From NCBI GenBank assembly GCA_050084515.1, contig CM114271.1, forward strand, positions 37,138,001 through 37,202,000: a DNA stretch of 64,000 nucleotides. Direction: 5' to 3'. This DNA is from Blasia pusilla (Eukaryota). This document shows positions 3,575-55,112 of this stretch, piece by piece. The notes below the pieces were generated by a model. The model saw only the letters and a list, made by a program, of their open reading frames with translations, was not told where the DNA came from and did no database searches. Positions within the stretch are counted from its first letter, which is position 1. Every line of letters starts with the position of its first letter. Position numbers and translations under genes: made by a program.

Positions 3575-3721
3575 CACTACAACAATTTGACTCTCACAAG
3601 GCCATATCTCAATTATGCAGTTGGTTTTCTCAACCAGCTTATGCAATCACCACTAAAGTCCCATCTTCATGCAGTGAAGCGTATTTGTGAGCATGTGACG
3701 TTCACTATTCAGTTTGGTTTC

Positions 3722-3785
<64 letters not shown>

Positions 3786-26499: not shown

Positions 26500-28197
26500 C
26501 CCCTTCCTTTTGTTATGCCTTTTGTGAGGAAGACATGGGATGCTGTAGACATAGCATTGCTCTTGCCCGGTCTTGTTGGCATGCCTCCACAAGTGAAATT
26601 GTTTGACATGCTTGTGACAACCTCCAAGAGGAATGAACGCTTTCAGCTCCACTTATGTTGGGGCAAAGGGCATTTTCATGAATGTTCAATCCCTGCAACG
26701 ATGGCGATGTGAGAAGGGAACAAAAATAGCTCAAAATTCAAAGAAGTAAGCTTCTTGTCGGAACCAGATGGGTTGCAAGGCCGAGGCATCCCATGAACGA
26801 CTCTGCGACGTGTCAATTCCTGACGTGTTGCAACATCCAGGAACCACCTAGTGCAACCCGTCCGATTCCGACGTGTTGCAAGTAAATTTGGCCATGCGAC
26901 TTGCAACCCGTCCTTTTCTGACTGGTTGCACACTCAGGCAACCCATCAAACCATCCTTTTCCGACTGGTTGCACTCTCAGTCAACCCGTCAAATTCCGAC
27001 GGGTTGCAAGTAAATTTGGCCGTGCAACTTGCACCTCCTCGGTTTCCGACTGGTTGCACACTCAGGCAACCCGTCAATCAGCGACGGGTTGAACGGGTTG
27101 AGCAACCTGTCGCATCCGACAAGTTGCTTGATTTCTTTGGTTTTAAATCCCTATAGTGACCACGCTTCTCAACTTTAGCTGCAACCCTTCAAACAATTTT
27201 CAGCGAGACAAATTAGTGAACTCACTTCCCGCATGAAGTTTCCCCATTGTCTCATTCGTACAGTCCACCAACTCAACCAAGAGCATAACTCTTTGTACTT
27301 CCCCTCAATCGCATGTTTCCTCCACCACCCATGAATTTCTTCTTGGCATTCCATGGTATGTTTCAAGGTTTTGTTGTCCTTGCAGCCTTGGAGTAGAGTG
27401 ACATGCTCCGTCCTCTTATTCTCCTTGATGCAAGATTTGGTGTACCGGGTCACAGACTGTTGCCAATGGAAAGCATCCGACCTTTCTCTCTTCGATTGAA
27501 CCTCCTCACCCCAAAACACTTCCCTGGTAGCAATCCACCCTTGGTTGTGCATTATCCGCCATAAACCCATAAATTTCCGAAGGTGGCCTTTTTTTTCCTT
27601 CATCACCTCCAATGAGAGTAACCAGCACATCTTCAAACTGCCAACGTCTTCTGCTTTTACTTCACATACAAATATAGTTTTGAGTCCCTTCTCCACATGG
27701 TCATAAATGTGAGCACCCATTGTCAACCATCCATTCAGCACTGTGTAGCAAATATCAAAGCTTACCCAACTTCCGTAAAGATCTTCCCCTTCCCTCATTC
27801 GATCTGTAAGATCAAGGCCACTCGACGGACTTGTCGTTGATATTTTGAAGACATAGGCCCTGGATCCTTTGCCTCCATGGCCCATGAACTGCCATCTCTT
27901 AATGAATGGAAATCTAGAGTTGGCCTTGATTCTGGAAATAGCATCCATTTCGGCCGTCTTTCCATCCAGTACCCATATTTGACGCAGCAAATTCGAGAAG
28001 CATTCAGGATCGGCGAGAAATGCGAGATTTTCCCATGGTAGTTTTTGCTCAGCAGCCGTGATCTCGCCCTGACCAGGGATTCCAAGAAGTTGTTCACAAA
28101 ATTGTGATGTTGTTGTTAACTTGATCACTCCACGCTTTGAACCCGGAGAGTTTCTGTAGACCTCGGCCACTTTATTTGCCATATCCTCCTTGTTTAC
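26500..28197 (-). pseudogene. Mutator-like (MULE) DDE transposase, catalytic half; exons ~28197-27225 and ~26692-26500
   Basis: WVSFD (first D, ~27755), GFMADNAQ (second D, ~27555, across a frameshift), DAFHWQQSV (the MULE C/DxxH motif). After a GT-AG intron comes PNISGAESVHSSW (E, ~26643). Confidence 0.75.
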
Positions 28198-28539
28198 CAT
28201 ACGGATTATGTCGTAGAGTATAGTGTGCTAGTAGAGGACATTCCTTATGTAGGACCGTAGTGGCTTGGTAGAGATGCGGTTTCATACATAGGGTTGGGGG
28301 TGACTTTCCCAGTAGGGCCCGCTCTTAGGTTGGAGGATATAAGGTGGAGTGCACTCTAAGAACAATCAGTTCTTTGAGTTGAGCCTGTTGCGTTGGGAGT
28401 TAGCCTTGGTAGTGAGTAGAGCCCTTGGCTATGGTGTTTCCCGCAAGCTTTGACCTAGATTCTCCCATCGTGGAGTGGGTTTGGCTCGATTGTATGTGAT
28501 TCTATATGTGTTTTATGACAGTAGGTCTTTCACGGATTT
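28196..28539 (+). repeat. 5' LTR, the part alignable to the 3' copy; lacks the first ~98 bp, true 3' end unresolved
   Basis: ACCATACGGATTATGTCGTAGAG..GGTCTTTCACGGATTT is near-identical to 36847-37170. Confidence 0.85.
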
Positions 28540-29716
28540 CACTCCAAGAACTGCAGTAGATCGATGGTAGCTTCGATTGTAGATCAGTAGGATCTGGTTA
28601 GGGCTGATTGTGTACTCAGCCGTGGATGTTCGTGGCTTGTGGCCTATGTTGGAGGTGTGAATCTCGTGCGTGGTTGGTTGGGAAAGAAGGGCCTTGCTGA
28701 GAGCTTTCCAACGCGCTTTAAATCGCCGGATTTCATCAAGGGAGTTGGAGGCTTCGAGGCAACTCGTGGTAGCTCGGGATGAGTGGGCGTGAGAGGCGGA
28801 GCAAGGAGCAAGCAAGCTGCTTGCTTGGGCGTGAGGCAATTTTTGCAGGATTTGGGATTTGAGTGTTGCATAACTGGTCACCTATCTTTGGGCTATTCTG
28901 CCTGGAGGACGCTTAACTGCTGAGTTCTTTACTATGCTAGTGTTCACACTGTTGTAGCTCATTTGGTGCTGTTCGGAGATGTTTAGGCGCTTTATGCATC
29001 TCAGGTTTTTGGTTGATGTACCTCTAGCGCATAGTACGGTGTAGCCTCTCCATGCAGGTGATATTTTTAGGTGCTGCGAGTTCGACTAGCACGTCATCGA
29101 CCCGCGGTGGAGTAGCTATTGCGTTAGAATTGTGTGGTGGGTTTTGTGGATTCAGGGGGCACCACGTTTGGTGAATTATGTTACCTTGATTTCCATTTGT
29201 GGATTCAAGGGGCACCACGTTTGGTGGATTATGTTACCTTGATTTCCATTTGCAATTGGAGGGTTGTCGTTGGACTTCTTGTGTTTGGATCCCATCCATC
29301 AGTGCTTCTTGCTTGCGCGCCCATTGTTAGGGTTGACGCTGATTTCCAGAGTAGTGTTACTCCTGTGTGCTATCGGTAGTGAGGCTGGAGGGATGACGAG
29401 TAGACGGTGGGAGGCTTCTTGTGGTGATGACAAGTTAGGTTGCCTGCACCCATAGCTAGTAGAGCTAGAATAGTATAGCGACATCGACGTCACTTGGTTA
29501 TTTGGTGGTGGTACGGCATCGGCGTTGGTCATCACGAAGCTGTCGGGTGGTCTGGTTGGGGACCGTGGTGCGGACAGTGGTGGTTTCACACGGAGTGGAT
29601 TTAGGTATCGGCTACCTTTTCTACTTCCAACGGTTGATGAAGAGGAGGACGAGGGTGTTCCAAACATCGAGTCTTCTACGTTGTTATCGAGTGTTGCAAC
29701 TCCATTGATTTGGGAC

Positions 29717-30914
29717 ATGGACGGTGGATATGGGGCCATGAAGGGCCCACGACGATACTTGGGTGCAATGGGCACCATTGAGTTGGAGGACTTCATGTAG
29801 GAGTTTGATACGTGGTGTGATATGCAGATGTTGCGGAACGCCACGTTGTTTACACCCTTCTTGGCTTGGAAGGGGTTGTTTCAACACTTGGAAGGACCAC
29901 CCATGGATGATTACCATGAGTTTAGGAAGGACCATGTTGATGAGATTGAGGCATGGAGACAATATTGGTCTCCAGGCTATGTGTCTATCACCCATGGTGG
30001 TATTGGTAGTAGTGCTCCTACTATGCCAGCCAGCCCGACGTTGAGTGAGCCGAAGTGGGGGTACCAGTGGAGGTATTAGTGGGGGTACTAGTGGAGGTAC
30101 TAGTGCCTCACCATCGTTCAGCCCGGTTGCAGAGTTCTTCAAGAGGTTGAAGAAGAACTCTCAGGGAGTGAAGACGGAGAAGTTGAGGAGTCTTCAGGAA
30201 TTTGAGCGAAAGACTGGTGAGAGTCTTCGTGAGGCATACACTTGTATGCGACGCTTGATTTCAGTTACCCAGGGTGTGATTGAGGATCAGGCAGTCCCGT
30301 TTTGGTATGGGATCTTGGACAGAGATTTGCGCCGTAGGGTACATGATGCTACTCTTATGAGTGATGATTCATCCACATTGACCCATGTGTTTGCTCTATC
30401 TGAGAAGATTGAGCTTAACATGGTGAAGGAGAGAGTGGTGACATCCGCATTCAAGAGGGGATACAACTACTACTTCGTGTTCAGTTGACCCACCTCACGG
30501 TCTCGTAGTAGTGGTGGTGGTAGTAGTAGTGGGAGTCATGGGGGGTACACACGACCTCAGTTAGGTCCTAGAGGGACACTTGCGCAGAGACCATTGCCTT
30601 CATTTGCTGCCCCGCAACAAGGACAATTATGTTGGACATGTGGAGGTGATCATGTTAGGAAGTTTTGTCCCCAAGAGGATGGGAGACGGACTTTGGAGGA
30701 TGGGCCTCAGTCGGCCCCAACTCGGTGTGATCATTGCGGGAGACCAAGTCATCCTCGAGAGCGTTGCTTTGATCTTCATCCAGAGTTGAGATCAGGCCGC
30801 GGCCGTGGTGGAGTAGCTCCGAGAGGCCGAGGTGGTAGAGGTGGACCAGTGGTTGGAGAGCCTACGGTGGCTACCCCTACCACTACGACAGTCACTATGG
30901 GCTGCCAGGATTGA
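29717..30914 (+). pseudogene. Gag with two CCHC zinc knuckles
   Basis: LRSLQEFERKTGESLREAY (retrotransposon Gag pattern), CWTCGGDHVRKFC and CDHCGRPSHPRERC, then RGRGG repeats. Broken by stops and frameshifts. Confidence 0.85.
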
Positions 30915-31559
30915 GTAGTTGGAGCAGAGTTGGCTACTATGGTGGTATCCAAAGATAGATCAGGTTCGGGAGCAGGGCTTCCACCTCTTATGGAGGGATG
31001 ATCTCTCTTATATGGCGAGTGCAAAGACAAAGGTTGAGGCATCACCTGCAGCTTTCGAGAGGAGCCACTCGAGCGTTAGAGCCACGTGGTGCTACTGTGG
31101 AGTTGGACCCACAGAGGGGTGAGGCTGGGAGGCAGGCTAGGCTTCCCGAGTCATTCTTGTTGTATGAGGTGCTTAGGACTCCACCATGGTTCCCTCAGCG
31201 GCCTATTGAGCCGGCGCAGTGGGGACTAAGGCATCTACATCGCGTGTAGTAGACACGGATGCACCATCCGATCAAGATTGTGCGGATGGCAACCGATGTT
31301 GGGATCCCCATTGTTTTCGGCCACGGAGCTGATGGCTTTAGGAGTTGACTTAGCTCATGTATTTCAGCTAGCAACCACGTTGTGTGAACGTGGGGGTGTT
31401 ATTGCTACACGTGTTGAGGTGGATGAGAGTGTTGCGGTGGAGCGACCCTCTATGTCGGTGTAGCATTGAGTACGATGTGCTACTTGGCGGGCGGCGGCGG
31501 CGAAGATGGATGCATTACCGGCCCGACCACCATTGATCGTGAGAGGCTTACACCTCGTG

Positions 31560-31960
31560 TATGTATGTTGGACAACCGGGTGGGATCTTCCGATTGGTTA
31601 GTCCTACACGGGGCAGTGTATAGACCGGATAGAGTCTTGTTAGACTCACGGTGCCCAACCTTGATGTTGGGAAAGGCGGCATGTATTGGTTTGGGTATTC
31701 GGAGGTCAGAGCTTGAGCCTTGCCCATTCCAGATTCAAACATCACTTGGAGGATCCAATGATAGGTCTCAATTAATGACACGGGAGAAGTTTTCTGTACT
31801 GTTGAGACCAAATCATGCGACTGATAGCTCCCGGTTGGGAGTATCTACGGTAGTCACATCAGCCGAGTCATATGATGTACTAGTTGGAGGAGCAGTATTG
31901 TACCCGATGGGTTTTCAGATGGATTACTGGATTGAGACAGCGTCTTATAGACCTGGTTGG
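31560..31960 (+). pseudogene. Retroviral-type aspartic protease
   Basis: VLLDS(R/G) active-site motif and the downstream YDVLVGG motif. Confidence 0.7.
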
Positions 31961-32368
31961 CAGTCCGGGGATGGACGTATGAGCCAAGTTCCTATGAGAT
32001 TTATTTCTAGGGCTCGACCAGGAGGGTCTTCCCCAACAGTGTTAGCGTCTATGGCTGGTTTTAGTGGAGTAGTCACTTGGCCAGGAGACTTTTTGGAGGG
32101 TAATATTTATGCTATGGATTCTCCTGCGCGTGAGGAGGTAGAGGAGGTCCCTATTCTTGCAGCAGTGGCATCCTCATCGTTGGATGTGCCACTTTGGAGT
32201 TCAGGCGGTGCACTACGGCAGAGGCGTCGCCTAGTGCAGAGGAGGCTTGGTGTGAGGTCATTATACCTCGACAAGGAAGAGGAGACCCCACGGCGGACTC
32301 CTACTTTTGGTCCAGTTGGGTTATCCCCTTTGGATACTACACCCATTGTATGGCAGTATCCGCCGAAG

Positions 32369-33330
32369 GGCATTTGTGTGTTAGATCTCTTTGGTGGGAT
32401 TAGCACTTGGTTTTTTGCAGATGTTGCCGGTATTCCCGTGCGGAGATACGTGTATGTGGAGCGAGATGAGACGGCCCAGAGAGTCTCATCCCGACATATT
32501 GGTCAGTTGATGCGGAGATATCCTGAGTTGTTGCCGCCATCAGCTATTCGTGGGTACCAATGTGCTTTACCATCACACATTGCATTGTTGGGGGCGCAGG
32601 ACCTTGAGAGGGTTGGTCCTGTGGATTTGGTGATTGCTGGATGGCCATGTCAGGGTCATACACGTGTTGGTCGTGGTGAGGGATTACATGACCCTAGGTC
32701 TTGATTTTTTTGGGAGATGTTACGGGTGTTACGACATCTTCAGGTTCACCAGGCACGTGCTCTAGCTTACATTTTGGAGAATGTTCCATTGTTGGATGAC
32801 ACTCGGACCCGGATGATGGCGAGTGTTCATGAGGTGCAGTCTTGGATTGGACCAGCAGTGTTGTTGGATGCAGCGTGAGTTGGCTCGCGTGCACATCGTC
32901 CACGCTTGTGGTGGACAAACTTGTTGCCTAGGGAGGTTCTCGTCAAGCATATGATGCAAGGTCAATGGGATCCTTGCCTTACCGTGGATAGTATCTTGGA
33001 TACTGGGCGACTTTCTCAAGTGGTGAGGGTTATTGATCGGTCACCCATGGCAGTGGTGAACCGTGTGGGCCAGCCTAGGATGGCACTACCCACATTTGTG
33101 AGTTTTCCCTCGTCACATGCCTATAGAGAAGGTGATCCTGGGCTTGTATGGGATTCTCATGTGCGACAGTTGGTGGAGCCTAACGCTGATGAGAGAGAGC
33201 GTGCGATGGGATTTGCTACTGGTGTGACAGCGATTGCTGCTATTTCTGAGGCTTCACGACGTCATGTGTTGGACCTGAATTGTTTGACTTGGATTTTGAG
33301 TCTTGGTATGGCCGAGCAGCGTCGACTTCG
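32369..33330 (+). pseudogene. DNMT3-like C5 cytosine DNA methyltransferase domain within Pol
   Basis: Ordered motifs: I VLDLFGGI, II YVERD, IV VDLVIAGWPCQG (32642-32653), VI YILENVP (32777), VIII AHRPRLWWTNL (32891), IX ERERAMGF. There are stops/frameshifts between some motifs. Confidence 0.9.
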
Positions 33331-33713
33331 GACTATGTCTGTGGGTCTTCCACCCCTTGTAATGAGCTCGATGGCTACCGGGACGGTAGAGGCATCGGCT
33401 GGAGGCGAGGAGAGTAGTATTTTGCATCCTTGGAGTAAATGGGATGTAATGGCTGGGCATGTGGAGTTGGTTGCTCATGTTGGTGGAAGAGTTATTTGCT
33501 CAGATGATGGTGTAGCTAAGGGTGTACCATTTTGTGAGGGGGTTGCGTAGCAGCCAATGTCATCGTCCTCTCCCTCTAGTGTGCTAGTGGAGGAGACTTG
33601 GGAGCCATCACTTGGGCCCAAGCTTACGGGAGGTGAGAAACGACGCTTGACAGAGTTCCTACGTGCTTATAGGAGTTGTTTTGCCTTTAGCATGAAGGAG
33701 TTGGGTTCTCTGG

Positions 33714-35000
33714 TTGGACCTGGTATACGGAATTGATTTGGCTAGTGATACGCCAATCTTCCGTCATCCCTACCGATATAGTGATATGGAGAGTAGGACG
33801 TTGGACCTTTTGGAGGCTGGATTAGTGGAGTTGTCGCATGGAGAGTATGCATCAGCCATTGTCATGCCTGCTAAAAAGGATATGCATGGCAACTACACGG
33901 ATAGGCGGATGTGTGGAGATTACCGTCCTATCAATCGAAAAACCAAGGCCGATAGGTATGCCATGCCTACCCCTGAGGAGATCTTTGATGTGGTGGGACA
34001 GGCAAAGATTTTTAGTACTTTGGATCCTCGGGTAGGATACCATCAATTGCCGATTCGAGAGAGTGACAAGGCCAAGACAGCATTTTGGGGTGTCAACTCT
34101 CATGGCAAGGATTGTTTGTACCAGTGGAAATTCTTACCCTTTGGGTTGAAGAATGCACCTGCCGAGTTTCAGAGAGTGATGGACAGGATCCTAGGAGGGT
34201 TGGATTTTGTTCGGTGTTACATTGATGATATCTTGGTGTTCAGTAACACGGTGGAGGAGCATCAAATATATTTGCAGATAGTGTTTGAGCGGTTGAAAGC
34301 TCATGGTCTACGTTTGCATCCAGGAAAGTGTAAGTTCTTCCATGAGGATGTTGAGTACTTGGGTCATGTGATCTATCTAGGTGGTTTGGGAGTTCAGCAA
34401 GCAAAGATGGAGGCTATTGCAGTTATTCCGCGTCCGGTAGATGTGAGTAGAGTTCAGGCATTCATGGGATTGGCGAACTACTATCGGAGGTATGTGAAGG
34501 GATTTAGTGCTATGGCAAAGCCTTTAAACCAATTGCTGAAATCAGATCAAGAGTGGCACTGGGGAGATGATCAAGAGAGAGCTTTTGTGGAGCTTAAGGC
34601 CCAGTTGGTGGCGGCGCCTATCTTGAGGAGACCTATCAGAGGGCGCCCATTTTAGTTACACACTGATTGGAGTAGGTTGGGACTTGGAGCGGTGTTAACA
34701 CAACATGATGATGAGCACATGGAGTTTGTGGTGGCCTATGCAAGTCGTTTGAATAATGCAACGAGTCGTCGCTATAGTTCATATGAGGGAGAGTGCTTGG
34801 CAAGAGTGTGGGGGCACACTTTAGGTGTTACTTGTTTGGTACGAGTTTACCCTTGTTCTTGATCGGCGACCGCTCAAGTGGTTGATGGAGTCGACAAGCT
34901 TACGGGGGAAGCTTGCACGGTGGGCTCTTATCTTACAGAGTATGACTTCCGAGGTGGTACATAGACCTGGAGTTTCCAACCTTGATCTTTGATGGGTTGA
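33714..35000 (+). pseudogene. Gypsy reverse transcriptase and RNase H
   Basis: RMCGDYRPIN, GYHQLPI, KTAF, LPFGLKNAPAEFQR, CYIDDILVF, YLGHVI, LHTDWS..GLGAVL, YSSYEGECLA. Confidence 0.95.
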
Positions 35001-35399
35001 GTAGGAACCCATGTACTAGCCAAGAGGATACATTGGGGCTAGATGGCATGGCGAGGTTGATGAGGAGATGGTGCGAGGTTGGCATGCATCCGCCTTTTAT
35101 GTTGGTTAGGTGGACTCTAGTATGGAGGATCACATTATATCTTACTCGAGCCGGAGGATAGGTGGCCACCTTGAGATCCTAAGGTTGGAGATGGTGGTAC
35201 GGATCGGTGTGATATTCATGGTGATGCATTGGTGTTGGAGTTCCTCTTGACCAAGAGGGTGCCAGGCATAGTGAGTGCCAAGGAGCAAGACCGTGTTCTT
35301 CAACGTGCTAAGAGGTATCGATTGAGGGAACACATATTCTCGCGTGTGGGAGGATGGTAGAGTACGAGTAGTGCCACATTTGGCTCGAGAGAGAGTGTT

Positions 35400-36580
35400 G
35401 ACATGCCCATGAGGAGTTGGGACATTTTGGGGTAAAGCGACGTATAGCTTACTCCTTGGCGATATTGGTGGCGTGGCATGCATACTCGGTGCACAGATGG
35501 TGTCACGTTGTATGGTTTGTGACCGGCGAGGGCATCATTCAATGCCCCTACACCATAATTACACCCCTTGCCTATTATGGGGTTGGGTTACCGTTGGAGT
35601 GTGGACTTTGCGGGACCTTTTGTTGGATCCCATGCGACATCATCGATATGTGTTGGTGATGGTGGAGCACTTCTCCAAGTGGATTGAGTTGGTGGCATTA
35701 CGGACAAGGCAAGTGAGGAACGGCGTATGCGTTTCTTGATAGAGTGCTTAGTCATTTTGGTGCATACTAAAAGTCTTGACCCACGGGTACTGAGTTTGGT
35801 GAGTTTCGGTCTTGTGTGACAAGGCGTTGATTGATCATCGGACCACGTCTCGAGATCATCCAAAGGCGGATGGTTTTGAGCGTGTGGTTCACAGTGAAGA
35901 GGGCATTGCGCAAGTATGGCCTCTGAAGGGCATCTTGGAGGTAGGATATTCGATTTGCAATGGTTAGCCATGGGGTATAGGTTGATCGCCAAGCATCCTT
36001 GGCTTCCTTCTCACCTTGCTCTGCCCGAGATCAGACTTGCCAAGAACAATTGGTCGAGTCTAATGAGGTGGTGAACCTTGATGACCCAGAGATGTGGATG
36101 AGAGTGTGTTCTCGGGCATAGCTCTTCGGAGAGTTATGCCAATAGCCTTTGAGAATCTTGCCATTGCTCAACACAGGGATACGTTGCGGTATGCAACCAA
36201 GAGTGGAGGTTATCGACCATCGATTTGTAGGTTCCATGGGGACTATGTGTATTTGCAGCAGATTGCAAGACAACGTTGGATGTGACGACAGGCGCACTAT
36301 TTTACGAGTTTGCGAGGTGTTAGCTTTTGGAGTTCTCATGTTGGAGGGTCGTGATAGAGTTGTTTCATGCGCCATGTCATCTTCCAAATGTGGATGGTAT
36401 CTTGTTGACCCAAGCTTAGCCATAACGTGCTAGCTTGAGATGCATGTTGTGTCGTCTCTGTAACGCCACCCTTATGTTGGTGTGTGATCGGTGTTGTAGG
36501 GGTTGGCACATGATGTGTTTGACTCACGTATGGATGTTGTTCCCTTTTGGAAGGTGGGTTTGTCCTCAATGTACTTAGGA
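35400..36580 (+). pseudogene. Gypsy integrase with C-terminal PHD finger, heavily frameshifted
   Basis: HEELGHFG..CMVCDR (HHCC), WSVDFAGP, VMVEHFSKWIEL, then CDRCCRGWHM..WVCPQC. Homologous to 318-1467. Confidence 0.85.
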
Positions 36581-36748
36581 GAGGTAGATGACTTGATCTT
36601 TGCATGATATGGATTGGATGTGCGACTTACGATGGGGCAACCTAGCACCCGGCCTTCCGATTCGGGCACCCAAGAAGATGTATAGCATGTAGTAGATGTA
36701 TAGGGCTACGGGAGTTAGAGGACCTAACCGCTTGATTAGGGGGGGAGT

Positions 36749-37268
36749 TGTGGTACACTTGTATTTGTGGATACTCTCGTCTATGTTATGTATGGTATGT
36801 TAGCGATGTATGTTGTATGACGATGTGGATTTCGCATTTTGTCATGACCATACGGATTATGTCGTAGAGTATAGTGTGCTAGTAGAGGCCATTCCTTATG
36901 TAGGACCGTAGTGGCTTGGTAGAGATCGGTTTCATACATAGGGTTGGGGTTACTCGGTTGGGGTGACTTTCCCAATAGGGCCCGCTCTTAGGTTGGAGGA
37001 TATAAACAAAGTTCTTTGAGTTGAGCCTGTTGCGTTGGGAGTTAGCCTTGGTAGTGAGTAGAGCCCTTGGCTATGGTGTTTGACCTAGATTCTCCCATTG
37101 TGGAGTGGATTTGAGATTCGATTGTATGTGATTCTATCGTGTTTTATGATAGTAGGTCTTTCACGGATTTGGTTGTGGTACACTTGTGTTTGTGGATACC
37201 GTCTATGTTATGTATGTATGTGAGTATGGTATGTCAGCGATGTATTTTGTATGACGTGTGGATTCGCA
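36749..37268 (+). repeat. 3' LTR (36749-37170, truncated) followed by a second copy of the LTR start (37174-37268)
   Basis: TGTGGTACACTTGT begins at 36749, right after the PPT, and again at 37174. Confidence 0.85.
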
Positions 37269-38170
37269 CGACATCCTTGATGTGTCTCTGAATTGCATCA
37301 CTCACAGGATGAGTGTGGGAGCCAACATGAACTGCCAACCTTGTGTACTCTAACGTGGAACCCAAGTCGTGGACAATGAAAAATATGTATGCAAGACACG
37401 CTCCAACGCAGAAAGGGGATGCTTGACAATGAGGACATCGATGGCCTCCCGGCGGTATGGTGGCACCGACCTCATATGGAGTTTCTGCATTCTTGGGAGG
37501 AAATTGCGACGTATTGACCCACATGTTGCGCTCTAGATACAGGCATGCATGACTTTTACACACCAAGGCTCCAACGTATTGGCGGCAGGAGACAATCCAA
37601 GGACAATGTGGAATTGAAGCACTAGTACGTTGAATCCTGCACCATCGATGACAGGACTTTCGTCCATATAGCGTCCTCCATCTTTCTTTTGAGCAGGAGC
37701 AGCAAGTGGAGGCAACTCAAAAATGGAATTACCATCGTACGTGGGCGGAAAATTGTCGACAAGAATGTGCTTGAACATTTTCAAGGTCTGAGACAATAGC
37801 AAACTATTGCCTGATACTCGCACTAAGGTTGATAACATGAGGAATTTCTTCAGGAAGTACAACATTGTAACGAACGTATGAAGTTGGAGTCGATGCCGGA
37901 TCTTTTGAGCTAGGAGTTGCAAATGTAGAGCTCGGTGCACTAGGAAATTCTTGACCGTCTACTTGGAAAAATGAGGAATTCAGAGGCAAGCTGTAAACTC
38001 TGTATTGACCATTTGCTAGAGGTAGGAGATTCCATACTTTACGGTCTGCAATCACTTGCTAGACTGTCTCACGTATTATGTCCTCCGTACTATCCACCCT
38101 AACATCCTTGGATACAAAGATGGTTCCAATTTGGAGAAGAAATCAAACTGAGAGAAAATTTTCATCCATT
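37268..38170 (-). pseudogene. N-terminal half of the MULE-like transposase, with a GCM/WRKY-like Zn-binding region
   Basis: CPHCQASPFCVGACLAYIFF..RLAVHVGSHTHPV (Cys cluster plus HxHP). It reads in frame into the 28197 half once the retroelement is removed. Start codon uncertain. Confidence 0.65.
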
Positions 38171-44400: not shown

Positions 44401-47400
44401 AGAATATATCAAATGTACAGTTTCGAGCTTTCTTCGGATGTAATAAAAGACAAGATTTTTTCGAACGATGATGGTGTTTGTAAATGTTTGCTGAATATCT
44501 TTTTTGTCTTGTCGATTGTGATCGTCTATGTACTGCAAAAATTTATTTTGCAACCCGTCGGATTGCCACGGGTTGCAACTTTTCACTTTTTGACCACTAC
44601 ATCTTTTTAACCACTTCCAGGCAACTTGTCGGATTCCGATAGGTCGGCTGCGGGAGTGATTGGACTCTTTCCTTTGTTGGTCCAACTTTACAGGCATTCT
44701 GATGGGCTTCTTCACTTTGGCACCTTCCCCTAGTTTGGTCAAACAAGTCTTAGGCTTCTTCTCTTCTCTAAGACGTGTTGTATTCCTACTACCTGTCAAA
44801 TTGCCATGATGGTGTCTCCAAGGACGAAGCACATATTGATACTGGATGGGTATCACCGTGCAGAGCGTACAAGATTTACTGCTGAGGAAGGCGGTGGGAC
44901 TCAAATCAGGTTACATGGGACCGTTATGGTGTACCTAGGGGGGTGCCAGGGCTCTCGAATTCGCCAACATTTTTCGATCCCCGTCTTCAATTGGCCAAAG
45001 GAGCCACTTGTATCCCAGGACATTCCTTTTGTACAGGAACCTAGGAGAGTTAGGAGTAAATTTGTAGATGACGAGGTTGAAGAAATCATAGACTAGATCA
45101 AATGTACATTTTGAGCTTCCTTCAGATGTAGTAAAGGACAAGATTTTTTCAAACAATAATGGTGTTTGTAAAAGTTTTCTGAATATATTTTTTGGACTTG
45201 TCGATTGTATTCGTCTAGTTGCTCAGAATGTTTATTTTGCAACGCGTCTGATTCCGACGGGTTGCAACTTTTCACTTTTTGACCACTGCAACTTTTTAAC
45301 CATTTCCAAGCAAGCTGTCAGATTCTGACAAGTTGGCTGATTGAGTGATCGGACCCTTTCCCTATGAGAACAACTTTTGAGACATTTTGGTGGGCTTCTT
45401 CACTTTTGGCTTGTTCCCCTTGTATCGTTAGACCAGTCGTAGGCTTCTTTTCTTCTCTGAGACGTGTTGGATTCCTACTACGTGTCGGATTGCCATTTCG
45501 GATTCCCAACTACATGTATTTTCGTGGGTGCATGATGGAATGGAATCACTTTTCAAAATCTTTCCTTTGTTATGGTGAGCTTGCTTGCAAGGGATGCAAG
45601 CCATTTGATTCCGACGGGTTCCAAGAGTTGCAACCTGTAAAATTTTGACGGATTGGGAGGGGTGCAACTTATCGGTTTCTCTGATTTAGGATCTGAATGA
45701 AGGGACATCGGTTCCTCTTTACTCCAGATTGTTAACAATATTTTGGTTCAATTATTGTCTACTATGTTCACATTTCACAAAGTTGGTCTTTATTTGAACC
45801 TTTCATTGAGATGAGATTGCTACCTATGGTCAAATTATTTGCCAATGGTCCTCCAACAAAAATACCCATGGGCACAGCTTACTGTAGACTGAGACAGGCA
45901 ATGTGAAGAAACTTAGGCTCACATGGAGAGTGATGGAAAAATGTTTGTAATGGTCTTATGATATCTACTTGTTTTTCGCCCCCTGGAAAAAGGAGGTTTC
46001 TTTAGGCCCGAATGTGGACCACTACCTACTCTCTTCTAAAGATTTCATGAATTTGAAAGCAAACAAAAATTTCAAATATGTCAAAAATTTTAAGAGAGGA
46101 GGCGGATTTGGCCCTTTTTTTTTAAGAGAGACTCTCCTCTCTTCCTCTCCTTTCTTCCTCTCTCCTGCCAGAATACCAGCCCCCAAGGCGTTGGGACTCC
46201 AATCATGTTACATGGGACCGTTATGGTGTATCCTGGGGGGGGGGGGGGGCAAGGCTCTCGAATTCCCCAACATTTTTTATCCCCGTCTACAATCGGCCAA
46301 AGGAGCCACTTGTATCCCAAGACATTCCTTTTGTAAAGGAACCTATGAGAGTTAGGAGTAAATTTGAAGATGACAAGGTTGAAGAAATCATAGACTAGAT
46401 CAAATGTACATTTATGAGCTTCCCTTTGATGTTATAAAGGACAAGAAGTTTTTGAACCATGATGGTTTTTGTAAACTTTTGCTCAATTGTTTTTCGTTCT
46501 TGTCGATTGTGTTGGTCTAACTACTCGAGGCTTTTTAGTTTGCAACCGTTGGATTTCGACGTGTTGCAACTTGTCAGAATATTTTTAACCCCTTTCAGGA
46601 AACCTATCGGATTTTGACAGGTTGGCTGCTTGAGGGATCCCCCTCTTTTTGTAAACTTTTGCTGATTTTTTTTTGTTCTTGTCGATTTTGTTGGTCTATC
46701 GACTCGAGGCTGTTTATTTTGCAACCCGTTAGATTCCTAAGGGTTGCAACTTGTCACAATATGTTTAACTCCTTTAAGGCAACTTGTCAGATTCCGACAT
46801 GTTGGTTGCTTGAGTGATCCCACTCTTTCCCTGCTAGTCCAACTTCTTAGGCATTCTGGCAGGCTGCTTCACATTTGCCTCGTTCCCCCATTATTTTCAC
46901 ACCATTCTTCTCTAACACGTTATTTCAGAGACGTGTTGGATTCCTACTACCTGTCAGATTCTCATGTCAGATTCCCAATCTGTCGGATTCTCATGGGGTC
47001 TAGGGTGGAATGGAATCACTTGTCAAGATCATTATTTTTTTCTAGTGTGTTTGCTTGTAAGGGGTGCAACCCATCGCATTGCGATGGGTTGCAAGAGTTG
47101 CAATCTATCGTATTTTGACGGGTTGGAAGGGCGCAACCTGTTGGATTCCGACATTTAGGGTCTGAATGAAGAGACATGGGTGCATCTGTTCCTCTTTACT
47201 CTTGACAACTATCAACCTTTTGGTTCAATTGTCGTCTCAATCTGATCACATTTTCTTCTTGATGCATACATTTCTCAGTGGTTGAGAAAATGGTGAAACC
47301 AAATTGTCAAATGCACAACAATCCATGGTATACTTTATGTACCCATTCATGAGCCAACATCATCCAATGATGTCATGAAAGTCTCCGGCTACCATCAGTG

Positions 47401-47940
47401 ATGAGTGATTTGTTCTGTTGTGGAAACCCCCCTCATGGATGAATATTGATCGGATGGGATATTTAATCCATAATGTCAACCACATCTTCAGAGAAGTTAA
47501 ACCTTGAAGGGCACATGTGTCTATTGAGACCATAGTTAGAGTCTTTATTTGAACCTTTCATTGAGATGAAATTGCTACTTCTGGTCAAATTATCTGCCCA
47601 TGGTCCTCCAACAAGAATACCCCTCTGCATGGCTTAGTGTAGAGCTAGCTTAGACAGGCAATGTGAAGAAAATTGGGCTCACATGGAGAGTGATGGAAGG
47701 ATGTTTGTAGTGGTCTTATGATATCAACTTGTTTTTCCAAGCCTGGAAAAAGAAGGTTACTTTAGGCCCGAATGTGGTCCATTTGTTTCTCTCTTCTAAA
47801 GATTTCATGAATTTGAAAGCAAACAAAAATTCAAAAATGTCAAGAAGTTTTGAATAGAGGAGGCGGATTCTGCCCTTTTTTTTTTTTTTTTGTAAGAGAG
47901 ACTCTCCTCTCTTACTCTCTCCTGCCAGAATACTAGCCCC
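44370..47940. repeat. Array of diverged ~0.7-kb and longer modules downstream of the MTase gene, also present at 25375-26490
   Basis: GATGACGAGG..GAA..CATAGA(C/A)TAGATCAAATG at ~25383, ~26072, ~44378, ~45067, ~46368. GTTACATGGGACCGTTATGGTGTA at ~25917, ~44910, ~46207. 45490-46180 is repeated at 46950-47940. Confidence 0.85.
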
Positions 47941-50299
47941 CCATCATCTGACTTATAGAGGTTTTCGTGCCTACTACGTCAGTTTGTACGTCTTGACATT
48001 GCTTCTCAAAGTTCTCCATTCTGCTGATCAAGCTCGTCAACTCACTCTACACACATCCAGAAATATGTATCTCATCATCAAATGTGTACTTGCTAATCAT
48101 AAAACACATGAAGTCAATAACCCTATATTCCTTGTTGAATTCATCCCTCTACCTTATATTGCCACTAAAAAGATGAATCTCCAAACCCCACAAGGTAAGT
48201 CTTATATGTTAATAAGAAACTTTATCCCTACTTCAAATCTTGACAATCTTCTCTAAATTAGGTTCCCATTAGGTCATGACTTCATGCAAACTTCTTCAGC
48301 TCAGTATAGGAAATGCCTTTGTGTTGATCGATTGATGACTCTTCTCTATTTTTTTAGGTGCTCCCAATGACTCTGACAAGTCTTCCAATGTGGGGCTTGT
48401 CCCACGCTCTTTCCTCTACATATTACAATATATACATTCTTAGAGTACAAATACTATAGAGATACAATTAAAAAAAGCAAAGGTAGTAAATTGAGAGTAA
48501 ATCTCAATATTAAAGAAAGCCAACTTACCATATAATTCCTCTGGCCAGCATATCCACGTCTCCCATGCGGATTCAAATGCTCCACCTTTGCCCTATTAGC
48601 CTTCATGCGTTGAGATCTAGACTCACCCTCAGGAGATAACCAATAACTTTTCAAATTCTCCCATGTTCAAGGATTCACATCCAAGGGTGCAAGGCATTCA
48701 GATCCACCCCCCTTGATCTTTCCACACTTTCTTCAATCTGGCCCTTTCTCTCTTCATCAAATATTGTAGAGAAGTCCTCCAAAAAAAAATCGTAAGCTCA
48801 CCACCTTTATATTCATATCGTGAGTCTATATCTCGCCAAATTGTCTTAAAGTCATGGTCCAATTGCTTGATGACATCAATAATGCTAAGGTCAAGGTGAC
48901 GATGGATAGAGACCTTAACATCATCATACCACGCTCCCATTGCCTTCACATCCATAGACTATCTCACCATTTGGAGTCACCTCCACAGTCGGCAACAAAC
49001 CGGCACCCTCTCGAATCTTGGTACTTGCCTCCCAAGCTTCATATTCCTCCTTTCTCTGCATACGAGAAATGGATGAGTCTACCTTCCATAAAAGATACAT
49101 CGTCAAGAGTTGGAATGAGGGAACCAAACACGATGAAACACCACACTATACATATCTTTCAAAATGTATTTAACTTTGAAGAATATAGAAGACTCACACT
49201 CCATTAAAAATAGGAATAAAAGTAGCAAAGTAGCTAATATATGCTCAATAGAAAGTAGAGCAGGTCAAGGAACAAAGGGTACAAATCTTACCAAGAGGAG
49301 GTTGTGCCCTGATAGGCCACTCAGACATTTGGGGTTGAGGAGGGGGTGGAGGGGGTGGATAGAAAGACCCTCATGCACCATAGGGACCCCAACTAGGTGG
49401 GATAGATCCTACAATATGACATCAATCCAAGACATGTAAATAAATTATTTTTTTCTGATATCTCAGCAAATAGAAGAAAAATAATTGATATTACCTAGAT
49501 TCTTTAAAGTTAGCACCTTTCAGCTGTCAACTACCATGGTAGCAATATATCCATTCATCAACATAATCACAACAACTTTTGGGTTGAATGTTTCCAATCC
49601 TTACCTCCCATTGTTGTCGGCCAGTGTTGCATTGGATATCCAAGGTTGTACCCTTGCATAGGCCATTGCATTCCATGGTAAACACCTTTCTGCTCTTTCT
49701 TTCTCATTTCCCTTGGACTTGAAGACTGACAACCACATATTAGTTTCTTTGGCCTTCTACGAATGCATTCGATAATTGAAAAATCTGCATCACTAGTATC
49801 ACATCTAAATTTGAGAAATACAATACAAGGATCAATCAACACAAAGATCTTCACTCACATGTAAATTTCCTTCAAGGGGTCTCTTTTTCTTCTTCTTCAT
49901 TTTTGTGGTTTCAAGAGATTCAAAATCAGCATCATCTGATTTCTCGCCATGGATGTCAAACTTTGGATCAGACGAGTTATCTCCACATAAGAATCTCTCA
50001 TTCTCTGAGCCTACCTCCTCGATAGAGTGTTGTAAACACTGTCTTATGGTAAATATGTCCCTGGAATGATGAATGTGCACCCTTACTTGTAGGTACACTT
50101 GTTGATCTAATGTTACGAAATTCTTTAGTTATGTTCAAAACCTTGGAAGCCAAGTGATTCAGATTCAATAATTAGTCCATTGTTGATTTTCAGCAAGCAA
50201 TGAGGCAACTAACCACCACGTCACAAGGAAGCCAAACACTCACTTTATAAACCTAAAGCCTTGCCTCCTTCTATGCTCAAAGAAAAAATATTCCCCCTC

Positions 50300-53200
50300 C
50301 AAACCACCTATGAATCCTACATCCATTCATCTTTATCCCATTCAAAGCCAATATTGAGGAATATCTTCCCATGGATAGAGAGGGCAAAGGCCCTAACAAC
50401 AAGTAAAAAATAGAAGCATAGCTGCAACAATAAAGCTTAATATAACAATTCAGTAAATCATTACCACTAAATGCAAAATTCAAACAAAAAAGTAGTGTAT
50501 CAAGAGAAAAATGAAACATATTACTGGTTTCACTTCAACTTCACCAAAGAAAACTTGTTCTACTTGGCTTGGAAACACAAAGGGATCATAATTTATTGGA
50601 AGAAGCTTTTTGCAATTAGCCAACAAGAAACCATTCTCACCTCTAATCATTGTTGGATCAGGAGGGCCCCATACAGATTGAACCCATTTCCCCCTCATCA
50701 ACACCACGTGCTGATCTTTCACTCCATACTCTAATGCAATGTTATCAGTAACTATCCCAATATAAGTATCTTCTTTTACTTGTGAATTGCTATTATTCTT
50801 TGATAAGAATATAACTGCTATCCCTGAGAAAATGAATTACTTTTGGTACCATTTTCAATCCTATAATGATTCCCATTTTCTTGTAAGAGAGGTAATTCCG
50901 TGATGGAGGCACAAATAGTTTTAGTGCCATATCATCTACCTCCTTCCCCTCACCAACCCATTTCCTGATCTTGGGTCGTATCCAATCAGAGAAATATTCC
51001 TCGCCCGCCCCCTCGACATTGTATCTTCTACGTGTCAAAATTATAAATATGTGGTAAAGTTAGCAACCAGTAGATAGCACTTACAAATAATGAGAAATAT
51101 TTTCATCACTTTCATAATCAATCATAAAACTAACATGCTTACTCCATCCAAGAAGTGAAGCATTCACTATTTTCCAAGACGTATTTGTGTGCCACTTCCA
51201 CTATTTCGGTTAACAATTGTTGCTTAATAGCAGGCCCTTCCATCACCTTGCCAATCACACCCTCCTCTTCACATTTATTCCACTTTTGTTTGTAAAATCT
51301 TGTAATCTTACATGTTCTTTGTAATGAAGCCCAATGCCTCATCAAGAATATAACCTTCAGCCATACAAGCTTTGGGCCTAGTTCTAGACCTAACGTAACC
51401 TTTCAAGACACCTAGATACCTCTCGATTGGATACATCCATCGATTTGCAACAGAGCCACATATATCAAGCTCCTCCACTAAGTGAACCATGAGATGGGTC
51501 ATGACATCAAAGAAATAAGGAGGAAAGTGAATCTCCATCAAGCATAACGTGGTTAATACATCCTCTTTCAAAGACTTCATTTCAGAGGGATCCCACATTT
51601 TCGCACAAAGCCGTTGAAAGAGCCGCAACATGCGCATGATGATCATTCTTACATGAGCCTCCATGAGACCCCTTAAACAAAATGGAAACACTTGTTTCAT
51701 GAAAACATGCAAGTCATTGGACTTTAAGCTACCAAGCTTATTTCGGAGAAGGTGCTTTTGTAAAGCACATGCCGCCACTGGGCACTTTCAGTGCACTTAC
51801 TCTAGAATATAAAATCTTCATCTCATCAACACTTAGCACATAATCTGCTCTAGGTTTCAACTTAACTGTGGGTCTATGAGGATGGGATTAAAGCCATAAG
51901 TGAGGACGGATTCCTCTAACCTCCAAGTCTTGCCTTGCTTGGACATAATCCTTCTTTGGAAAACCAAATATGGTTTTGATGGTATTATATGCAATGTTCT
52001 TCTCACAATGCATCAAATCCAAAGCGTGTCGAATCAACAAATCTTGGAAAAAGAAATAAAGAATCCCGTCAAGAGACTTTCATTACCAACTGATATGGTC
52101 TGATATTCCAAGGGCATTTCTACAATTAATTAAGCATGCATAATTTCTTACCTTCCAATAAGGCAAGTAAAAAAGTACACTCCTTTTTTGGACACCGTAG
52201 ATCTTGTAGGGATCTATGATATAAGATCCACCTCTTCTTTTCCGTATTCTTGGGGCAACATCATACTACATCTTCAAATCGGCCAACTCCAAGATCTCCA
52301 CACTTGATACTCGACTCGGAGTTGCACGCATCTCAAATGTACGATTGAACAAGTTTGCCATATTTCTCTCCCATATGGATGCCCTATGTTTTTGTATCCT
52401 CTGTGACCTTGAAATGTGGGCTTGTGTAGAGGTTTTGAATAGTAGGAGTCTACATCAGGTCCACAAATGGAGCACCCTAATAACCCCTTGGTTGCTTGAC
52501 CCGAAATCACCCCCAAACCAAGATAGTCATTAATTGTCCATATCACCATAGCTCAAAGAAGGAACCTCCCCCTTCCTTCTGGATGGGTGCTATCATATTC
52601 TTGAACTCCCCTCCACAAAAATTGCAACTCATCTACAAGTGGAGCTGAATACACATCAAGATTGCTAGATGTTATAGACTCCTTTCTAGGAATGATAAGA
52701 GCCAATTGGAGAAAAAATGTCTTTGTGCAAAACCAAGGAGGTAGATTATAATTGACTTACACAACAAGCAAGATAGACCATCTATTGTTCTTATCGCTAA
52801 ATGGGTGTACTCCATCCAAGGCTAGTCCAAGTCTACAACTACGAGGGTCTTTTGCAAAATCAGGCCACATTTCATCTATGTGTTTCCATGGCTTGGAATC
52901 CCCTGGATGTCTAACCTTGCCATCTACACTTTTTTTGCAACTAGTCTATTTCATTCATTAAAAAATGGATCTACATGTGTACAACTGTTTCAATGGAGGA
53001 ATGATGGGGAAGTGCCTTAGGACCTTTGTGGCTATCTTGCACTTGCCGACGTCCTTAAACCTATGAGCATTGCACTTTGAGCATTGAGCCAACTCAGATT
53101 GCGCTCCTTGGAATAACATGCATCCATTAGGAAAAGCATGGATTTGCACGTAGTTAAGTCCTAGATTGGATATTAGTTTTTTTGCAGCATAATGATTTTT

Positions 53201-53870
53201 AGGGACAAGATTATCGACAAGTAGGAATTGTAACCATAAGAACTTCAAGAGCTCATCCACGGTTACATTCGACATGCTATCCATACTACATATATTCAAA
53301 AATATCATTGTGAATGCTAGAATACTGGTTTGGCTTCCATGGAATAGAGCTTGACATGCGCTCTTCAAGGATCTAGAGTATGTTTCTAAATCTTCATCTC
53401 GTATGTTTTCATACAAATCTTCGGTCCTTGTCTTAAAAGGAACCTCATAAGATTGGTCTTCAACTTCCATTGGTTCATTAATATCACATTCAAGATCCTC
53501 CATGTCCCCTTGATCAAAGCAATGGAATGCTTCAATGATCATTCTAGGAATCTCCAATCCCTTATCAAAACTATCTTGTTGGTTGATCTGATCTACACTT
53601 TGGGTCAAAGTTGGATTATCTTGCATCCTCTCAAAATTCAACCTTTGTGATTTCCACTCTTATTGATAGGAGTCATAATCAATTGTATTTCTCCAAATCC
53701 TTCTCAGAGGATACCGCTTATATTCAATCAAGTGTTTTTCTACTACATGCAAGAATCTTAACTTGATTCCCTTTCACTAATTACAAGGAAATCTAAGCTT
53801 TTGTAGCCCTAGGACCCTTGCTGCCTCCTTTTCTCTTTGCCGGAGTTTCTCATCATGGAGAGCAATTTGA
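50300..53870 (-). pseudogene. CACTA TnpD transposase
   Basis: IHAFPNGCMLF..CSKCNAHRF..KVLRHFPIIP, LGLALDGVHPF, WTINDYLGLG..GCSIC, LKSNDLHVF, FFDVMTHLMVHL..RWMYPIERYLGVLKGYVR, DPFVFPSQVEQVFF. Confidence 0.92.
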
Positions 53871-53957
53871 CTTGGATCCGAGAGTTCTTTCCTTTCCATA
53901 TATGCACAACTTGAAATCACTCAAAAAGGCTATATCCAAGATTTTATGAATAAGGTC

Positions 53958-54090
<133 letters not shown>

Positions 54091-55112
54091 GAAGACATCG
54101 AAACCCTATTTTTGTCTCCAATGATGTCGAATGAAGGGTTTTGACAGCATGATCAAATAGAGTACTACTGCATAGAGTTCTCGAATCAATCCTCATGTGA
54201 ATCTTGCGAGAGAAAAAATTTGGATAGGCGGAGAAAGGATTCGAAAGGCAAAGAGAAGTCTTGGAACGTGAGAAGAAAGGGGCTTGAAAGCCAAGAGTTC
54301 AAATAAGAGAGAGATAAAGCCAAGCATTCCGAAGCAAACATACCTCAATACAAACTCGAACGATTCATCACATTACACTTCCTAAACGATGTGTGCTCCA
54401 CTACCCACACACAATACTGAGAGAGAGGAATCACAATTCCAAGCCCTAAAAAAAATATTGCGTGCTCATATACTTTACAATTTAGCCCCTGCCATAAGCT
54501 TGGACCCCTCAGAGATCTTGATTGTATGTAAGACTTGGTATGTAGGAACTCTCACCTTTTCGGAAAGGTATATGCACGAGAGACTTTTATAAGTTTATAT
54601 GTTTCAAATCTTACATCAGAAAAAAAAAATATCCCGTGAATATAAGAGTAGGAGTGTCATCATACTATTGTTTCCTTTGCGAATGATTTTAAGCCACGTG
54701 ATATAATATTTTATGGTACTAGACTAGATTAGTTGTAGTTCTAGTATTATAAAATCCATGTCATTTACATAATTTTTTATTTTAAAATTAATTTATTATT
54801 ATTCCTAACTTACACGTGTCTATTATTTAGTACTTTTTAACTAGTTGTAACTACATTTAGTTTTTCCAACTGAAGTTAGTATCTATGTAGGACATGTCGT
54901 TATTAAAAAATGATAAGATTAAAATTTATCATTGTCAAAAATTTTAATAATATAATGCTAATGCCATATCATTACCTTGTAGTTCATCCTAGTTGTAAAA
55001 TAAAACTAACATATGACATGTCATCATTTTATGTCTAACTAGTTGTATATGTAGTGTTATCGGACGTAGTTGTAAGTATCCTAGTGTTAAAAATATGTAT
55101 TTCCTTCTAGTG

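Follow-up and report, generated by a model that had tools for sequence, protein, structure and literature searches.

A probable family of bryophyte Gypsy-type retrotransposons that encode their own DNMT3-type DNA methyltransferase

Ever since retrotransposons with a DNA methyltransferase were found in dinoflagellates and a charophyte, it has been a puzzle why a transposon carries an enzyme of the class that hosts use to silence transposons. The locus described here raises the question in a liverwort genome. It lies in a stretch of 64,000 nucleotides from Blasia pusilla (assembly GCA_050084515.1, contig CM114271.1, positions 37,138,001 to 37,202,000 of the forward strand; hereafter the window, in whose numbering all positions are given). 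An earlier note, made from the sequence alone, had described there a Gypsy retrotransposon with a DNMT3-like domain between protease and reverse transcriptase (RT). The segment 28191-37273 (+), we found, is very probably a defunct member of a family of Ty3/Gypsy-type retrotransposons with a DNMT3-type cytosine-5 DNA methyltransferase (DNMT) of their own. Elements of the Gypsy-DNMT3 kind are already known, and their presence in land plants is the addition made here. Three features of the family may be new: the position of the DNMT upstream of a leaky-looking stop codon, a PHD finger on the integrase, and split repeats combined with a target duplication of the DDE type. The interest of the locus rests on the family, the window copy being a fossil.

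Tentatively, and in a reading that we regard as doubtful when taken as a whole, we propose that a single old Gypsy lineage extends from charophytes to liverworts and mosses and is still transcribed. Its members would join an active DNMT3, made in Gag-like amounts, to a tobamovirus-style leaky UAG that rations RT and integrase, to an integrase with a PHD finger, and to split repeats that hint at a circular intermediate. Newly made DNA of such an element would be methylated by the element's own enzyme, either before integration or in the course of it.

The methyltransferase domain and the element that carries it

The DNMT domain occupies 32345-33547 (+). The motif order that had been read at 32369-33330 holds, with motifs I (LDLFGGIS, 32381-32404), IV (PCQ, 32645-32653), VI (ILENV, 32771-32785), VIII (AHRPRLWWTNL, 32891-32923) and IX (ERERAMGF, 33191-33214) following one another on the plus strand, unpermuted. 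Motif X, which reads LLGQAMDLNCLTW in relatives, has a 4-residue gap near 33263-33292. This agrees with the partial deletion suspected in the earlier note, as 16 of the 17 rows that reach this column in a 21-row family alignment carry the 4 missing residues. The suggested Pfam check was likewise positive: the read-through translation (P0001, with X at stops) matches PF00145 at E = 6.5e−8 (32.8 bits vs a cut-off of 22).

The likeness to DNMT3, which had been proposed from the motifs, is also seen in searches of the Protein Data Bank (PDB). The top 29 of the 52 distinct sequences retrieved in a sequence search are all DNMT3A, 3B or 3C (E = 1.9e−8 to 1.7e−5), followed by M.HaeIII (E = 0.0022) and DRM2 (E = 0.38). 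A profile of 21 family members ranks DNMT3A (2.2e−19) and DNMT3B/3C (about 1.5e−17) ahead of DRM (3.1e−10), M.HhaI (5.6e−6) and DNMT2 (about 2e−5), and DNMT1 is absent from the 52 PDB matches of this profile at E ≤ 0.01. We also modeled the domain of a natural relative (L005), which is 69% identical to that of the window, with AlphaFold (pLDDT 68.3, pTM 0.71; the core is modeled with confidence, unlike the last 70 residues). In a Foldseek search of the PDB with this model, all matches listed, at ranks 1-50, are DNMT3A, B or C (best E = 8.6e−17; TM-score 0.77 by target). Sequence, profile and predicted fold thus all place the domain nearer to DNMT3 than to any of DNMT1, DNMT2, DRM and the bacterial enzymes. 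Neither PWWP or ADD, as in animals, nor DUF3444, as in plants, was detected by Pfam in the first open reading frame (ORF1) of the window copy, of the relatives L080 and L043, or of the Marchantia protein P0123.

The coding order around the domain was determined with tblastn searches of the window, using bryophyte polyproteins, and with Pfam scans; all coding features are on the plus strand. First comes a frameshifted Gag region (29717-30914, tblastn) with two CCHC knuckles (30630-30668 and 30726-30767), in which residues 1-99 of the Marchantia proteins P0122, P0123 and P0127 align at 29717-30013 (frame 2) and residues ~106-354 at 30075-30794 (frame 3). Protease and linker follow at 30959-32344 and are 64% identical to P0123 over 272 residues (BLASTP, E = 8e−107). 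Searched singly, the gag and protease pieces of the window match no Pfam family at E ≤ 0.01; among relatives, Pfam detects zf-CCHC in L043 and, at the place corresponding to the protease, Asp_protease_2 in L080. Behind the DNMT, an in-frame stop TAG (33548-33550), followed by CAG CCA (33548-33556 in all), forms the boundary between ORF1 and ORF2. The RT leader and RT (33551-34655) come next, with a frameshift near 33731 (tblastn), and the RT reading frame 33696-34655 matches RVT_1 at E = 2.8e−31 and contains YIDD at 34218-34229. An RNase H remnant at 34653-35124 (RT_RNaseH_2, E = 1.1e−11, and RT_RNaseH, E = 1.2e−10, in a read-through translation; tblastn) is followed by integrase remnants spread over three frames (35187-36352, tblastn of P0161 and P0163). 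Because the integrase of the window has no Pfam match at E ≤ 0.01, it is recognizable solely via its relatives. A PHD-finger remnant at the C terminus of the integrase (36441-36572) was read directly from its Cys/His pattern and lies under the Pfam threshold.

The window copy thus has the order protease, RT, RNase H, integrase, as in the intact relatives L080 and L043, and both Pfam and the tblastn order agree with a Gypsy-type element that has a DNMT3-like domain between protease and RT. The earlier statement that the domain lies inside pol is right in placing it between protease and RT and needs amendment on one point, in that the domain is the C-terminal part of a Gag-protease-DNMT frame closed by a conserved stop.

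The copy is dead. The frame 31427-33550 (+), in which protease and the first half of the DNMT share one ORF as had been noted, is broken by two premature TGA only (32702-32704 and 32876-32878) and ends with the TAG at 33548-33550. The protease triplet region (31637-31654) reads LLDSRC vs LLDSGA in Marchantia P0123, that is, D-S-R for D-S-G. Motif X is gapped as well, and the reading frame shifts 10 times or more (at least 4 frame changes in ORF1 and at least 6 in ORF2, tblastn). The decay seen in the earlier note is thus extensive, and this copy is incapable of the activities proposed below.

The element starts with TG, ends with CA and is flanked on both sides by TCCT, a 4-bp target-site duplication read directly at 28187-28190 and 37274-37277. 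Its previously given limits, 28196-37268, delimit the same element and fall 5 bases short on each side. A 4-bp target duplication together with TG..CA ends is the mark of a DDE integrase. Duplications of 4 bp occur in all three complete copies examined (TCCT in the window, AAGG in L075 and TCTC in L054).

The repeats are split. Only repeat A stands at the 5′ end (A1, 28191-28545, with a TATA-like TATAA at 28338-28342), and a leader (28546-29716) connects it to gag; within this leader there is a tandem duplication of 57 nt at 29143-29252 (+), 96% identical. At the 3′ end, B1 (36747-36839) touches A2 (36840-37171), which is followed by B2 (37172-37273), whose CA is the end of the element. The direct repeats A1 and A2, aligned over 315 positions, show 14 substitutions and 8 indel events, and B1 is 83% identical to 37172-37268 over 99 columns. 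The A...B-A-B layout is repeated in L075 and L054, the two metagenome loci with A present twice. No B was found beside A1 in the window copy or in these two loci, and identical long terminal repeats (LTRs) at each end are thus absent from all three. All three also keep CACTC(C/A)AAGAACT right after A1, a candidate primer-binding site, and a G-run directly upstream of B1 (read directly at 36738-36746 in the window), which we predict to be the polypurine tract and which may act as a primer. With a G-run in this position, conventional reverse transcription should yield [B+A] at both ends. The integrated form would then be a circular permutation of a conventional [B+A] LTR element, broken open at the CA|TG junction where B meets A. 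At the insertion site itself, three DNA contigs of run X1 join 28173-28179 straight to 37274 and so resemble an empty site, which suggests either that the flank itself is repeated or that an empty allele exists.

Distribution, selection and transcription of the family

Relatives of the window domain are numerous. A search for proteins of near length returned 170 proteins at E ≤ 0.001, of which 120 were listed, and a search for longer proteins gave 48 matches. The named matches among those listed are 19 clusters of Marchantia polymorpha (one of them, P0123, represents 18 member sequences), 5 from Calypogeia fissa, 5 from four Sphagnum species and 1 from Riccia sorocarpa; moss-like metagenome contigs also carry relatives. 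Identity to the window domain is 59-78% in a top tier of relatives, to which these named bryophytes belong, 42-49% in a second and 34-39% in a third, the last two consisting entirely of environmental sequence. Of 517 candidate stretches on metagenome contigs, 338 proved to encode a relative, and 80 loci were kept. An exhaustive profile search found 466 representatives of 50%-identity clusters at E ≤ 1e−30, many of them polyproteins of 1000-3400 residues. The DNMT segment is therefore a trait of the family, present in Marchantia, Calypogeia, Sphagnum and the metagenome loci, and the one-off capture that the earlier note had wished to see tested is not what these searches returned. That the nearest named relatives are liverworts and Sphagnum also fits the land-plant genome that had been presumed.

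In a tree of DNMT domains (60 rows hand-picked from 169 near-complete domains, rooted on the type-2 group only), the Marchantia rows (7/7) and the Calypogeia rows (3/3) form clades of their own, and the Sphagnum row groups with the main metagenome loci. The window copy falls within the same starred crown group of 24 rows but belongs to none of these clades, a position that suggests a bryophyte host other than those. One protein in this tree, P0043, is filed as a "DNA cytosine methyltransferase" of a metagenome-assembled genome (MAG) of Candidatus Obscuribacterales and adjoins L080 with branch lengths of ~0.03. Most likely, this is DNA of a eukaryotic retrotransposon that ended up in a bacterial genome during binning. 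Elsewhere, bryophyte copies are annotated as "hypothetical protein" or "DNA (cytosine-5-)-methyltransferase", and those in metagenomes and in one MAG as a bacterial "site-specific DNA-cytosine methylase". Where copies of the element are filed as methyltransferase genes, counts of host DNMTs are inflated.

The catalytic motifs are retained widely. By a crude motif count, PC[QNY] is present in 87 and EN[VI] in 95 of 104 type-1 rows; all six motifs survive in P0123 and P0124, two ORF1 models of Marchantia, and the catalytic motifs persist across lineages as distant as 39% identity. To evaluate selection on the domain, for which neutral evolution had been named as a possible outcome, we compared lineages by the ratio of nonsynonymous to synonymous substitution rates (dN/dS). 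Between the window copy and a Sphagnum-like clade, dN/dS is 0.24-0.30 for the DNMT (dS 0.59-0.74) and 0.17-0.18 for the RT (dS 0.86-0.99). Between L043 and the same clade it is 0.19-0.23 for the DNMT, at dS values of 1.4-1.7 that are near saturation. Across these lineages, the DNMT has thus been under purifying selection (dN/dS 0.19-0.30). The values are diluted by post-insertion decay. For the charophyte element KnitGypsy-Dnmt3, the available text reports Ka/Ks < 0.2 on the DNMT (PMC5890265).

The family is also transcribed. We examined three RNA-seq runs that carry the species label of the best-matching DNA run and counted reads at ≥92% identity; 2735, 2497 and 2973 reads per run fall on the whole element. 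Depth is 24-80x in the DNMT bins and up to 135x in the RT bins, and it climbs from 4-6x in the bin 28000-28313 to 39-53x in the bin 28314-28627. The depth profile suggests an RNA that begins in A1 and terminates in A2. In all 30 bins and all 3 runs, the depth of first mates on the minus strand exceeds that of first mates on the plus strand, which means sense RNA, assuming the usual stranded library type. All RNA reads carry a 1-nt indel difference from the window copy behind 31660. The DNA run yielded 183,038 matching contig pieces, from which we infer that the element family is highly repeated in the source of that run. Sister copies of the window element are transcribed in sense.

Beyond the arrangement described so far, the DNMT has a second placement. 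Two proteins (P0163 and P0164) and 64 more matches of P0164, from metagenome and EukProt sources, have the order RT, RNase H, DNMT, integrase, PHD. In the DNMT tree, the domains at this second place are sister to those located between protease and RT (support 98), and identity across the two placements is 35-39%. A PHD-tagged integrase is common to both. These data bear on whether bryophyte elements share a streptophyte Gypsy-DNMT3 ancestor with those of Klebsormidium or gained their DNMT3 independently, by convergence. Independent gain is a real possibility, if somewhat short of an even chance. Repeated independent captures of DNMTs are documented (PMC5890265, in the text available), the DNMT is found at two places in two sister groups, and protein searches with family members showed, among the matches listed, no protein named from Klebsormidium. 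However, the rare A-coding-B-A-B layout and the Gypsy domain set are shared with the published description of the charophyte element, as far as that description is available; the PHD-tagged integrase accompanies both placements of the DNMT; and the DNMT domains of the two placements are each other's relatives at the identity given above. Nor did the matches listed include a recognizable host DNMT3, and a cluster look-up and the Atlas yielded names of neither kind.

The boundary stop and the proposed course of events

The design of the family is best seen in the nearly intact relative L080, in which ORF1 encodes 1369 amino acids (Asp_protease_2 and DNA_methylase) and ORF2 encodes 1047 amino acids with the Pfam order RVT_1, RT_RNaseH, Integrase_H2C2, rve and PHD (PHD, E = 2.6e−10). 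Both frames are in one phase with a single TAG between them, and L043 is built alike. The family ORF1 is accordingly Gag(CCHC)-protease-DNMT3 and its ORF2 RT-RNase H-integrase-PHD. In a count projected by tblastn, the homologous codon is a stop in 56 of the 58 loci that could be aligned there (40 TAG and 16 TAA; the other 2 have TAC); 4 of 62 loci, whose alignment began more than one residue in, were left out. The Marchantia ORF1 models P0122 and P0123 end within ~20 residues of this stop. In plant RNA viruses such as tobamoviruses, the type I signal for readthrough is UAG CARYYA, according to the part of PMC5382211 available. The full signal is fitted by the window (TAG CAG CCA), by L043 (TAG CAA CCA) and by L080 (TAG CAG TTA). 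Given this fit, we hypothesize that the boundary stop is leaky.

The stop could instead be a true terminator, with RT, RNase H and integrase produced through splicing, reinitiation or a second transcript, or with ORF2 supplied in trans. This we consider rather unlikely, although several observations speak for it and against a leaky stop. After the stop, 50 of the 58 loci have CAACCC, so that most loci fit CARYYA at 5 of 6 positions only, and the boundary codon is TAA in about a quarter (16/58) and TAC in 2/58. The P0161 lineage runs DNMT into RT without any stop. The RNA 3′ of the stop has a weak consensus structure (−11.2 kcal/mol, covariation term +3.16) with no covariation support. Moreover, the 58 loci are not independent, because they are mostly close copies from few hosts. 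Finally, Marchantia gene predictors bridged the stop by an intron (P0130). On the other side, ORF2 continues in the same frame without a gap, coding conservation extends straight across the stop in lineages that are 46-70% identical, and three divergent lineages fit the full type I motif, for which simple arithmetic on the motif gives a chance of 1 in 512 each. As to the gene models themselves, P0130 and P0135 join DNMT and RT by a predicted intron that skips ~100 codons around the stop (in P0130, the equivalent of 33296-33598 of the window). This intron is an annotation artifact, which conceals the stop and lets ORFs of the transposon pass for host genes.

If the UAG is leaky, Gag-protease-DNMT would be made in bulk and RT-RNase H-integrase-PHD in small amounts by readthrough. 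Because the DNMT lies upstream of the leaky stop, it would be made with Gag, released through protease cleavage and probably incorporated into the particle. Once packaged, the DNMT could act on newly made cDNA or on the fresh insertion and methylate it, probably at CG by analogy with DNMT3 enzymes. Integration would be directed by the PHD finger through its recognition of histone H3 tails. Candidate benefits to the element are self-limitation or a gene-body-like mark that evades harsher silencing. The position of the DNMT upstream of a leaky-looking stop thus suggests how the element may set the dose of methyltransferase relative to RT and integrase.

An enzyme so deployed would need to be active, and the domain could be a catalytically dead structural module kept for binding to DNA or chromatin. 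Such a role is improbable. In its favor, the constraint on the DNMT is weaker than that on the RT, and KnitGypsy-Dnmt3 gave no de novo methylation in yeast, a result that its authors deem inconclusive in the text available (PMC5890265). Yet a module used for binding only would be free to lose its catalytic motifs, whereas the catalytic Cys (PCQ), ENV, RxR and the FxGxG that binds S-adenosylmethionine are retained across the family; two copies of SymbioDIRS-Dnmt3, whose enzymes are of the same class, methylate CG in yeast according to the same source. Hardly credible is a one-off capture of a piece of host DNMT3, or a host DNMT3 gene broken up by transposon fragments nested in it: host DNMT3 genes do exist in non-flowering plants (PMC6453930, in the part available) and the region is rich in nested repeats, but the DNMT is in one frame with the protease, the same order occurs in Marchantia, Calypogeia, Sphagnum and 80 metagenome loci, PF00145 alone passed the cut-off in the segment, so that DUF3444 is missing, and the target duplication brackets the whole unit.

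The reading of the segment as a copy of a Gypsy-type family that encodes its own DNMT3 has further findings to contend with, apart from those on the stop and the yeast result. The PF00145 match of the window is limited to residues 93-159 of P0001, and its two DNMT halves, searched singly, match no Pfam family at E ≤ 0.01. An ORF of at least 400 amino acids, of any kind, is found in just 6 of the 80 loci, and the DNMT is free of stops in 4 of 46 collinear segments. Among close copies within a clade, dN/dS of the DNMT is 0.34-0.94, as would be expected if recent changes mostly reflect the neutral decay of inserted copies; the ratio also exceeds that of the RT. As for transcription, the sense assignment depends on the library type assumed above, and reads at least 99% like the window copy number just 29, 16 and 19 per run, so few that we assign the transcripts to sister copies.

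Dinoflagellate and charophyte hosts are hard to manipulate, and the same kind of element is common in bryophytes, including Marchantia polymorpha. For this species, transformation, gene editing and published methylomes are available. If the proposal of one old lineage is true, Marchantia copies with an intact ORF1 would make it directly testable.

Surroundings of the element and comparison with known systems

The surroundings of the element are full of nested repeats. Just 5′ of it, two direct repeats of 96 nt lie 128 nt apart (26854-27077, +; 88% identical). The element has split a long open frame on the minus strand into 27175-28190 and 37274-37716 (337 + 147 codons), and this frame has no Pfam family match. 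A second related element, of which only the 3′ part is present at 37-1785 (+), is cut by the start of the window. In its fragment 1-1500, Pfam detects rve (E = 1.7e−10) and an intact-looking PHD finger (E = 8.5e−10); its DNA is 72% identical to 35532-36300, and behind a G-run comes a B-like repeat, whose end, CGCACGACA, lies near 1785. Within 1300-4000, a search for another B found none. Farther right, where the window is AT-rich, there is a Copia-type fragment at 55463-56140 (−; Pol_BBD, E = 5.3e−17, and gag_pre-integrs, E = 1.6e−10). The ratio of observed to expected CpG is 0.62-0.68 within the element; it rises to 0.78-0.80 in the near flanks and is 0.45 in 47000-64000. This ratio was uninformative and was set aside.

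The accessible text of de Mendoza 2018 (PMC5890265) describes Gypsy-DNMT3 only from Klebsormidium nitens, as an acquisition in that lineage, and has no mention of Marchantia. Later papers that cite this work say "streptophytes" in the parts available (PMC12344493; bioRxiv 10.64898/2026.05.21.726589). In the full text that we searched, which extended to neither subscription journals nor supplements, we found no description of a DNMT-bearing Gypsy element in bryophytes.

Compared by its available description, KnitGypsy-Dnmt3 is the system most like the bryophyte family in its parts: an LTR-Gypsy domain set, A-coding-B-A-B repeats, and a non-rearranged, intron-free DNMT3-type domain inside a polyprotein. 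Purifying selection on the DNMT is reported for it too, at Ka/Ks < 0.2, compared with the 0.19-0.30 between bryophyte-family lineages and the 0.34-0.94 among close copies. De Mendoza 2018 gives the layout of SymbioDIRS-Dnmt3 as "A-coding region-B-A-B" and describes KnitGypsy-Dnmt3 as having the repeats of a DIRS element and the domains of a Gypsy element (PMC5890265, text available). Going by these descriptions, the shared and unusual A-coding-B-A-B layout backs a link between the bryophyte family and the charophyte elements. Unlike that of the charophyte element, the host of the bryophyte family is a land plant of bryophyte grade; features of the bryophyte family are that the DNMT closes ORF1 before a conserved stop and that the integrase ends in a PHD finger. 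SymbioDIRS-Dnmt3 of Symbiodinium, as far as described, likewise has a DNMT3-class domain in its Pol polyprotein and A-coding-B-A-B repeats. It is, however, a DIRS element with a tyrosine recombinase, whereas rve, TG..CA ends and a target duplication mark the bryophyte family as one with a DDE integrase. Pfam detected no Phage_integrase, the domain by which DIRS, Ngaro and PAT elements are judged, in the relatives, which have Integrase_H2C2 and rve.

Host DNMT3 enzymes (DNMT3A/3B) resemble the element domain in the order and wording of their motifs and in the fold of the catalytic domain. In non-flowering plants, the host genes are PpDNMT3a/b, and DUF3444 is given as the C-terminal domain of plant DNMT3 (PMC6453930, part available). 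Unlike these enzymes, the element domain is embedded in a Gag-protease polyprotein, and it is ~20-23% identical to human DNMT3 in a structural alignment. The boundary of the window copy recalls tobamovirus-type readthrough, as described in the part of the source available, in that UAG CAG CCA stands between a product that would be abundant and an extension that contains the polymerase. Unlike in tobamoviruses, the stop is in a retrotransposon and upstream of RT, most relatives fit 5 of 6 positions, and readthrough is here predicted from sequence. Lastly, chromoviruses, of which MAGGY is an example (bioRxiv 10.1101/2021.11.30.470311, part available), share with the bryophyte family a chromatin-reader domain fused to the C terminus of the integrase; the reader of the bryophyte family is a PHD finger, not a chromodomain.

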